Sequence record: NC_028957.1 | From: Escherichia phage vB_EcoM_VR26 | DNA: 64,000 bases | Strand: one strand, 5' to 3' | Shown here: piece by piece, positions 4,821 to 5,579 of the stretch | Position numbering within the stretch: the first letter of the stretch is position 1 | Layout: every line of letters begins with the position of its first letter | Made by a program: the position numbers and the translations under genes | The notes under the pieces: generated by a model | Database searches by the model: none | What the model was told of the DNA's origin: nothing | Seen by the model: only the letters and a program-made list of their open reading frames with translations

Positions 4821-5579
4821 TTATTCCTTACTTTGTTTCAAGTATTCTATCGCAGTTTCTAATGAAGCAATATTGTCTTTAAACATTCCTAGTCCTATGT
4901 TGCATTTTGAACATAAAATACCTCGGACTTTACCAGTCGAGTGACAATGGTCTACATTGAACCAAGTGCTTTTTGATAAAGAAGTCGAATTGTTTGTTAG
5001 TTTTATTTTACAAATTTCGCAGTATGGTGTATCCTCAATTAACTTCAGAACATCCCGTCTTTTCATCTTTATAGAATGACTGTATGATAAGTCCAGCAAT
5101 TTGGTATCCCTTGCCTTTTGACAACAAGAATCCGAACAATATTTTTGAGTCCTATTTGTTGCAGTATACTCAATAGCACACACAGGACAAATACGCTCTT
5201 CCTTGAATATTCCACCACCCTGGCATTTAACTGAACAAAATTCATGGTAACCGGTCGCGAATGTATGATAATTAACAGGCTTACCACACTTACACAGGAC
5301 TTTCCCTTTTATATCATGTAAAATACGATAACAGACCTCGTTATACGGATGTTGTTCTCTTTTACCTCCCTGACATTCCAGTGCTTCTGCTCTAAAGGCA
5401 TTTGCTTCCTCAGGATGTTTTTCCCAAAATTTCTTTGCAAATTCTAAATCATTTTTAAATAAATTTCCGTTTAGTCTATTCGGATTTTTAGTTAAAAGAT
5501 TTTCTTCAATAAATTGTTTTAAGTTCATGGAGGTATTATAAGTCACATATTTTAAAGCAAAAAGGCCCGAAGGCCTCAT
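4821..5579 (-). CDS. Cys-rich zinc-finger protein with C-terminal endonuclease VII-like nuclease motif
   Basis: C-terminal [23 protein letters not shown] parallels gp49 motif DHDHELNGPKAGKVRGLLCNLCNG; several CxxC pairs; AT-rich; start ambiguous (ATGA-coupled ATG at 5579 inside hairpin, or ATG at 5528). Confidence 0.6.
   Translation of the reverse strand: [252 protein letters not shown]
5556..5577 (-). terminator. rho-independent terminator-like hairpin (UUCG tetraloop)
   Basis: aggcc-cgaa-ggcct with adjacent A-run; overlaps stop of 5576..5836 and first codons of 4821..5579. Confidence 0.45.

Follow-up and report, generated by a model that had tools for sequence, protein, structure and literature searches.

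A putative free-standing homing endonuclease of the endonuclease VII-motif family upstream of topoisomerase gene 39 in Escherichia phage vB_EcoM_VR26

What is a second endonuclease VII-like gene doing beside the topoisomerase gene of a T4-like phage? This question is raised by a stretch of 64,000 nucleotides (referred to here as the window) from sequence record NC_028957.1 of Escherichia phage vB_EcoM_VR26, a T4-like coliphage of the genus Gaprivervirus whose nearest public relatives are RZ, TH15, and VR7. A preliminary description of the window had noted a minus-strand open reading frame (ORF) that ends at position 4821 and carries an endonuclease VII motif, and had proposed that it encodes either a homing endonuclease or a structure-specific nuclease with a distinct target. 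The ORF and the motif (residues 192 to 214 of 235) were both recovered, and so was the reported location next to the topoisomerase gene. On the minus strand, gene 39.1 lies upstream of the ORF, and gene 39 follows immediately downstream.

Of the two proposals, homing is favored. The gene at 4821 to 5528 (minus strand) very probably encodes a free-standing homing endonuclease of the endonuclease VII-motif (DHHRN) family, as judged from comparative sequence analysis. The fixed insertion site, the linked tract of gene 39, the affinity of the protein to Hpy99I and F-CphI, and the precedent of the VR7 homolog speak for homing, and a resolvase-like function is disfavored. The VR7 homolog (48% identical) had previously been predicted to be a homing endonuclease. 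New in this analysis are the site specificity, which extends over several metagenomic lineages as well as two genera, the tracts of gene 39 linked to the endonuclease gene, which point to the 5' end of gene 39 as the putative target, the proposed promoter and leaderless arrangement, and the N-terminal module. A known homing-endonuclease pattern is thereby extended, and the current understanding is unchanged.

Catalytic core and relatives of the protein

Analysis of the protein sequence with Pfam predicted an Endonuclease_7 domain (PF02945) with an E value of 5.1e-18 and a score of 65 bits (cut-off, 23.6 bits), which bears out the proposed match to the catalytic and zinc-binding core of endonuclease VII. 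The PHROG families matched by the ORF were HNH endonuclease and endonuclease VII. Alignments of 16 and 30 homologs revealed that the zinc-coordinating cysteines C170, C173, C206, and C209 and the residues D193, H194, H196, R202, and N210 are invariant (corresponding to C23, C26, C58, and C61 and to D40, H41, H43, R54, and N62 in T4 endonuclease VII). These residues are arranged as C170-x2-C173, D193, H194, H196, R202, and C206-x2-C209-N210, in agreement with the DHHRN pattern CX2-4C...D-H-x-H...R...CX2C-N. The possibility of a chance motif devoid of the catalytic histidine and aspartate residues and of the zinc ligands was checked, and all of these residues were found. The catalytic motif occupies the C-terminal part of the protein (residues 170 to 232 of 235), although not its very end, as had been assumed, since 21 residues follow the sequence on which the preliminary description relied. 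The cysteine-rich clusters that had been reported ahead of the motif correspond to two Cys4 clusters, C79/C81/C98/C102 and C114/C117/C131/C135, both of which are invariant in the family.

Searching the PDB sequences with phmmer revealed Hpy99I as a homolog over residues 110 to 232 (E value, 5.8e-8); endonuclease VII itself reached just 0.37. BLASTP comparison with F-CphI yielded an E value of 2e-12 and 54% identity across 41 residues. A C-terminal helix motif, LG..KDN...L..AIEYLK, is common to the ORF product, F-CphI, and the intron-encoded proteins of Yersinia phages and is not found in gp49. The DHHRN family was defined from F-CphI, in which the conserved endonuclease VII residues are essential (Fang et al. 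2018, PMC6083498). The same study separated a resolvase clade from an endonuclease clade, whose members have the motif at the C terminus; Hpy99I and the proteins encoded in introns of Yersinia phages Berlin and YpP-G belong to the latter, as does VR7 gp6, which was judged to be probably a homing endonuclease of the free-standing type (Fang et al. 2018, PMC6083498). VR7 gp6 (VR7ORF006c) resembles the window gene closely in its arrangement: its gene, too, lies between the P39 promoter and gene 39, the protein is built of the same three parts, and the junction is likewise TATAATACCTCC|ATG. The two proteins differ at the sequence level, with 48% amino acid identity, and the associated gene 39 tract is approximately 50 nucleotides long in VR7 and approximately 1.1 kb long in the window.

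Comparison with the other members of the endonuclease clade revealed both shared and distinct features. F-CphI from cyanophage S-PM2 shares the C-terminal endonuclease VII-motif core, with the D, H, H, R, and N residues and four cysteines, and is likewise encoded by a free-standing gene adjoining its target gene in a T4-like phage. It differs in its length of 142 residues and in its unrelated N terminus, which has neither the helical domain nor the zinc-finger array. The activity of F-CphI has been proven biochemically, whereas the window protein is known from its sequence. The intron-encoded Yersinia phage proteins share zinc finger 2, the linker, and the core (residues 106 to 230; 36% identity; E value, approximately 1e-11). 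At 144 residues, they differ in having neither the N-terminal domain nor zinc finger 1, in being intron-encoded, and in having another target gene. In Berlinvirus vB_YpP_T3, the endonuclease homolog sits between two pieces of the DNA polymerase gene. An Rfam search of this split region at the gathering threshold found no group I intron, and for this reason the intron context was taken from the literature, according to which introns of the DNA polymerase gene encode the Berlin and YpP-G relatives (Fang et al. 2018, PMC6083498). Hpy99I (PDB entry 3fc3) is a bacterial restriction enzyme with a methylase and acts as a dimer on a short palindrome. Its N-terminal module, a beta-barrel, differs from that of the window protein, and no companion methyltransferase gene was found beside the endonuclease gene, whose neighbors are gene 39, 39.1, 39.2, goF, and cef.

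The relation to T4 endonuclease VII (gp49) bears on a second possible function. The ORF could encode a second Holliday junction resolvase or structure-specific nuclease, that is, a paralog of gp49 acting on branched DNA in recombination or packaging. The two proteins have the catalytic motif and the zinc site in common, and alignment of the ORF product to gp49 of the window by BLASTP (3e-5 over 59 residues) and the Pfam matches confirmed the shared catalytic core; moreover, RefSeq names the RZ and VR7 homologs "endonuclease VII." The differences are more extensive. In gp49 the motif is N-terminal and is followed by a C-terminal dimerization domain, and E65 is present; the ORF product has none of these features. 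Pfam detected no endonuclease VII dimerization domain (PF09124) in the ORF product; the same domain was found in gp49 of the window at 1.6e-23. The C-terminal position of the motif corresponds to the endonuclease clade and is unlike the resolvase clade, and the protein is nearer to Hpy99I and F-CphI than to endonuclease VII. The canonical gene 49 had been correctly located at 39288..39761 (minus strand), and its product contains both the Endonuclease_7 and the dimerization domains, so that the phage already encodes a junction resolvase. This resolvase is kept in all relatives, whereas the endonuclease ORF is optional and dispensable in most close relatives. A resolvase function of the ORF product is therefore considered extremely improbable, and the label "endonuclease VII," which implies a resolvase, is misleading for this gene.

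The domain architecture consists of a helical domain and an FCS-like finger ahead of an Hpy99I-like unit, which comprises a Cys4 finger and the zinc-stabilized nuclease core. No fold match of the N-terminal helical domain was found in the PDB. Only approximately 7 of 1.84 billion cluster representatives contained the complete module of residues 1 to 105; among phage records it was found in 18, in every one of which it belongs to a gene 39-associated gene. The helix and zinc finger 1 (residues 60 to 103; CxC...FCSxxC) recur in 2 to 5 tandem copies in metagenomic proteins of 400 to 900 residues (P0131-P0165), some of which carry DUF7487, DUF559 (Vsr-like), or TnsA-like nuclease domains or YacG-like fingers. 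This tandem recurrence in larger nuclease-bearing proteins suggests that residues 60 to 103 form a portable DNA-binding finger used by other nucleases. The proteins with tandem CxC...FCSxxC fingers may represent an undescribed zinc-finger array class of nucleases.

Insertion site and mosaic structure of gene 39

The distribution of the gene was analyzed in relatives of the phage. Within Gaprivervirus, the gene is carried by RZ (93% amino acid identity), TH15 (96%), and VR7 (48%) and is absent from VR25, VR20, SP18, and many other members, whose flanks are otherwise approximately 90% identical. Within Krischvirus, 13 of 59 records contained a homolog of 43% identity, which RB49, Phi1, JSE, and others lack. 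The gene is thus optional at this locus in both genera. Full-length homologs formed only approximately 8 clusters (90% identity) in a collection of 5.8 billion proteins. The metagenomic homologs P0002, P0003, P0004, P0007, and P0008 are each encoded immediately upstream of a topoisomerase large-subunit gene, and in all full-length lineages whose neighborhood was read (9/9; the window and eight others) the site is directly upstream of gene 39. The G+C content of the endonuclease gene is 0.342 compared to a window mean of 0.394, and only 2.5% of the 708-nucleotide segments are as low, in keeping with the AT richness noted in the preliminary description. Its suggestion that the gene was acquired is supported by the patchy presence, the low G+C content, and mosaic flanks with sharp breakpoints.

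Upstream of the endonuclease gene, carriers and endonuclease-free genomes are collinear right to the endonuclease ATG. Downstream of it, gene 39 of the window is a chimera with a breakpoint at 3633 to 3708. Over the first 1,107 nucleotides or so, its identity to VR25 and SP18 is 69% (71% for the amino acid sequence), and over the remainder it is 96.5% (98.7% for the amino acid sequence). Direct comparison with VR25 revealed 69.2% identity over nucleotides 1 to 1125 and 96.5% thereafter, with the last clustered difference at nucleotide 1107 (window position 3708). The G+C content of this foreign tract is 0.375 versus 0.431 for the rest of the gene. Its nearest matches outside Gaprivervirus (approximately 80% identity) are in phages such as CEV1, HX01, and Bp7 (Dhakavirus). 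At more than 90% identity, the 5' haplotype of the window was found only in RZ and TH15, both of which carry the endonuclease.

Two further comparisons revealed the same pattern. Between E26 and RB49 (Krischvirus), identity is 99.3% in the upstream flank, 55 to 90% in approximately the first 700 nucleotides of gene 39, and at least 95% in the remainder. Between VR7 and VR25, 19 differences, mostly synonymous, are clustered in nucleotides 9 to 57 of gene 39, compared to 3.2% divergence elsewhere (P = 2.6e-14). In all three independent comparisons, the endonuclease gene thus anchors a divergent 5' tract of gene 39. Homing with co-conversion would be expected to leave such nested tracts, with the endonuclease site as their anchor. 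From the short tract of VR7, the cleavage site would be expected in roughly the first 60 bp of gene 39, where the conserved KRxGMYIG ATPase motif is encoded. Strictly one-sided co-conversion was first considered and then dropped as unprovable, because any tract would be masked by the upstream terminator and promoter, which are near-identical in all genomes. Local discordance in comparisons within Gaprivervirus and Krischvirus is explained by the mosaic 5' part of gene 39.

Comparison of the window and VR7 alleles of the endonuclease gene revealed uneven conservation. The first 45 nucleotides (window 5528-5484, compared with VR7 [L002]) are 96% identical, the last approximately 135 nucleotides are 69 to 82% identical, and the middle is merely 40 to 60% identical at the nucleotide level. 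These alleles look recombinant; alternatively, the promoter and the translation signals of gene 39 may impose constraints on their ends.

The constant, tight association with the topoisomerase gene could also be expected of a domesticated protein that no longer homes. Such a protein might be a nuclease that excludes or degrades competitor phage or host DNA, a zinc-finger modulator of gene 39 expression, or a topoisomerase binder of the YacG type. A distant zinc-finger homolog, P0135, indeed matches Pfam YacG at 3e-7, and a second role would have a parallel in I-TevI, which doubles as a transcriptional autorepressor. The YacG similarity is confined to a 42-residue generic FCS-type finger, however, and conservation of the catalytic residues is complete. 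A mobile element, and not a fixed accessory factor, would be expected to show such a patchy distribution and mosaic flanks. Domestication is accordingly regarded as quite improbable, and the homing endonuclease remains the preferred identification.

Start codon and expression signals

The features of the locus are listed in Table 1. An ORF of 252 residues starting at an ATG at position 5579 was rejected: this ATG is specific to the window and lies within the gene 39.1 stop codon and terminator. It is present only in the window because the gene 39.1 stop codon is TGA there (A-TGA); the stop codon is TAA in TH15, VR7, VR25, and P479. The true start is the conserved ATG at 5528, and the overlap of the endonuclease ORF with the terminator hairpin is therefore an artifact. 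The UUCG hairpin described previously is real, but its coincidence with the first codons of the gene is not. The hairpin is conserved in T4, VR25, SP18, and VR7 and is followed by the middle promoter of gene 39. In TH15 (L009, approximately positions 50-65), the hairpin is partly deleted, with GGCCTTATTGCTTTA in place of GGCCTTCGGGCCTTTTTGCTTTA, and neither the MotA box nor the -10 hexamer is affected; the TH15 record is marked UNVERIFIED, and the deletion could be an assembly error.

Table 1. Features of the gene 39 locus in the window
Feature	Position	Strand	Remarks
Gene 39, topoisomerase II large subunit, fused 39+60 form, 610 residues	2982..4814	-	Presumed target of the endonuclease element
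Foreign 5' tract of gene 39	3708..4814	-	Likely co-conversion tract; probably holds the cleavage site in endonuclease-free alleles
Putative homing-endonuclease gene	4821..5528	-	235 codons plus TAA stop (4821-4823); ATG 5526-5528; start as in RZ and VR7 annotations and all homologs
Gene 39 Shine-Dalgarno sequence AAGGAA	4824..4829	-	Within the last two endonuclease codons
Beta-beta-alpha-Me (endonuclease VII/DHHRN) core	4833..5021	-	C170, C173, D193, H194, H196, R202, C206, C209, N210
Zinc finger 2	5124..5189	-	C114, C117, C131, C135; first zinc site of the Hpy99I-like core
Zinc finger 1	5223..5294	-	C79, C81, C98, C102; FCS/YacG-like, ...FCSxxC
N-terminal helical domain, residues 1-75	5304..5528	-	Family-specific module, presumed target recognition
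Spurious 17-codon N-terminal extension	5529..5579	-	Noncoding; spans 39.1 stop codon, terminator, promoter
MotA-dependent middle promoter, T4 P39 homolog	5535..5562	-	MotA box TTTTGCTTTA, 12-nucleotide spacer, TATAAT at 5535-5540
Intrinsic terminator hairpin GGCC-UUCG-GGCC plus U run	5562..5577	-	From terminator scan; ends gene 39.1

The promoter ahead of the endonuclease gene fits the published consensus of middle promoters and their spacing of 12 +/- 1 (PMC2988021). The pattern TGCTTTA-N11-13-TATAAT occurs three times in the window, compared to zero expected. The further exact matches, at 30485-30508 and 31683-31706 on the minus strand, are likely additional middle promoters. A consensus scan of the minus strand found no convincing sigma-70 promoter. 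The start site of T4 P39 is listed at 5349 (PMC2988021), which is the 7th nucleotide after the -10 hexamer. By this measure, the predicted +1 of the window promoter is the A of the ATG at 5528. The endonuclease ATG is located exactly at the position of the mapped T4 P39 +1 in the window, RZ, TH15, and VR7 (TATAATACCTCC|ATG), and the separate lineages P0003 and P0002 show the same placement (TATAATATTCCC|ATG) in another promoter context. No Shine-Dalgarno sequence was found before the endonuclease ATG in any of these cases. The position of the ATG at the P39 +1 without a Shine-Dalgarno sequence can tentatively be taken to suggest that the cassette replaced the 5' untranslated region (UTR) of gene 39 from the +1 onward and that a middle transcript without a leader serves for translation of the endonuclease.

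At the other end of the gene, a purine-rich Shine-Dalgarno sequence of gene 39 lies inside the 3' end of the endonuclease gene in every lineage. Still more tentatively, these features might be combined into a promoter-capture homing endonuclease, which would start at the P39 +1, be expressed without a leader, and supply the ribosome-binding site of gene 39, with the helical domain as a new recognition module specific for the 5' part of gene 39. If this were true, leaderless initiation would limit the endonuclease dosage, and the expression of gene 39 would depend on passage through the element.

The same signals also fit a decaying or inactive endonuclease, kept since gene 39 relies on read-through transcription and on the ribosome-binding site in the 3' end of the endonuclease gene. 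T-even phages commonly contain defunct homing endonucleases, an example being T4 mobA, which RefSeq describes as a "defective DNA endonuclease." In this explanation, the missing Shine-Dalgarno sequence ahead of the ORF and the presence of that of gene 39 within its last codons would both be accounted for. The state of the coding sequence argues otherwise. The ORF is intact in every lineage over a range of 41 to 96% amino acid identity, and the catalytic and zinc-binding residues are all invariant. The ratio of nonsynonymous to synonymous substitution rates (dN/dS) for the whole protein is 0.05 compared with RZ and 0.10 compared with TH15. Such values reflect strong purifying selection, are unexpected for a mere spacer, and indicate that the protein is maintained. 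A remnant is thus as improbable as a domesticated protein, and an active homing endonuclease agrees better with the data.

Proposed homing cycle and other optional genes near gene 39

In the proposed cycle, the enzyme would cut the endonuclease-free allele of a related phage during mixed infection, probably within approximately 60 bp of the gene 39 start. Recombinational repair with the carrier genome as the template would then copy the endonuclease gene and a variable 5' stretch of gene 39 into the recipient, which would turn resistant as its own target sequence is replaced. The element fills the space between the middle promoter of gene 39 and gene 39 itself and would have replaced the gene 39 5' UTR. 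The endonuclease would be made at a low level from leaderless mRNA, and its last codons would provide the ribosome-binding site of gene 39.

The seg and mob genes of T4 (mobA at gene 39/60, SegG, and MobE) offer a parallel. They are also optional intergenic genes next to conserved DNA metabolism genes, and co-conversion of flanking markers is a common feature. They belong to other catalytic families (GIY-YIG and classical HNH) and have no sequence relation to the window gene beyond the general beta-beta-alpha-Me fold.

Several observations weigh against the proposed identification and its details. E65 belongs to the catalytic domain at the N terminus in endonuclease VII; this residue is not conserved in the ORF product, in which Leu213 takes its place, and it is also missing from F-CphI and the intron-encoded relatives. 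A literature search retrieved no paper characterizing any member of the gene 39-associated subgroup, VR7 gp6 included. No shared immune sequence was evident in the first 33 codons of gene 39 across the carrier lineages, and no common immune or sensitive motif could be derived because the 5' sequences of gene 39 differ widely among carriers. The long divergent tracts show modular exchange at the site and are not proof that the endonuclease caused it. The breakpoint at approximately 1.1 kb is shared by phage P479, whose slot upstream of gene 39 is occupied by a GIY-YIG gene; therefore, other endonucleases may have contributed to the mosaic. With regard to expression, the leaderless reading is based on homology to the mapped T4 promoter, and the Krischvirus (E26), P0004, and P0007 lineages have ordinary Shine-Dalgarno sequences, so that leaderless expression would not be a trait of the family.

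The DHHRN family includes one biochemically characterized homing endonuclease, F-CphI, and very few follow-up papers have appeared. The window gene and its approximately eight sister lineages form a coherent site-specific subgroup, which occurs in coliphages that are easily crossed (RZ and VR7 versus VR25 and SP18). The locus offers a tractable system for studying whether intronless homing and marker exclusion in T4-like phages are driven by enzymes with the endonuclease VII motif, by what means an array of zinc fingers gives target specificity, and how a selfish gene becomes part of the signals that govern expression of an essential host gene.

Homing endonucleases appear to have a general hotspot at gene 39, which a T4 review lists as the mobA target. 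Examination of the neighborhood in other phages revealed further optional genes. In P479 (L006), a Seg-like gene with GIY-YIG, NUMOD3, and I-TevI-DNA-binding domains is located at 2208-3005 (minus strand) in the same upstream slot. At its start, it has the original 5' UTR of gene 39 followed by the first three codons of that gene (ATG ATT AAT), which indicates an insertion a few codons into gene 39 and not at the promoter +1. Bp7 (L011) has a NUMOD3-containing ORF upstream of gene 39 at 1727-2407. Downstream of gene 39, FL15 (L019) carries an annotated homing endonuclease at 2823-3386, just next to the gene, and T4 (L010) carries the mobA remnant at 3654-3767. An additional ORF of approximately 135 residues, similar to RB69ORF005c, lies between gene 39.1 and the terminator in RZ (L001, 3179-3592) and SP18 (L004, 2435-2833). 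It is absent from the window, VR7, and VR25 and constitutes a second optional gene of the same intergenic neighborhood.

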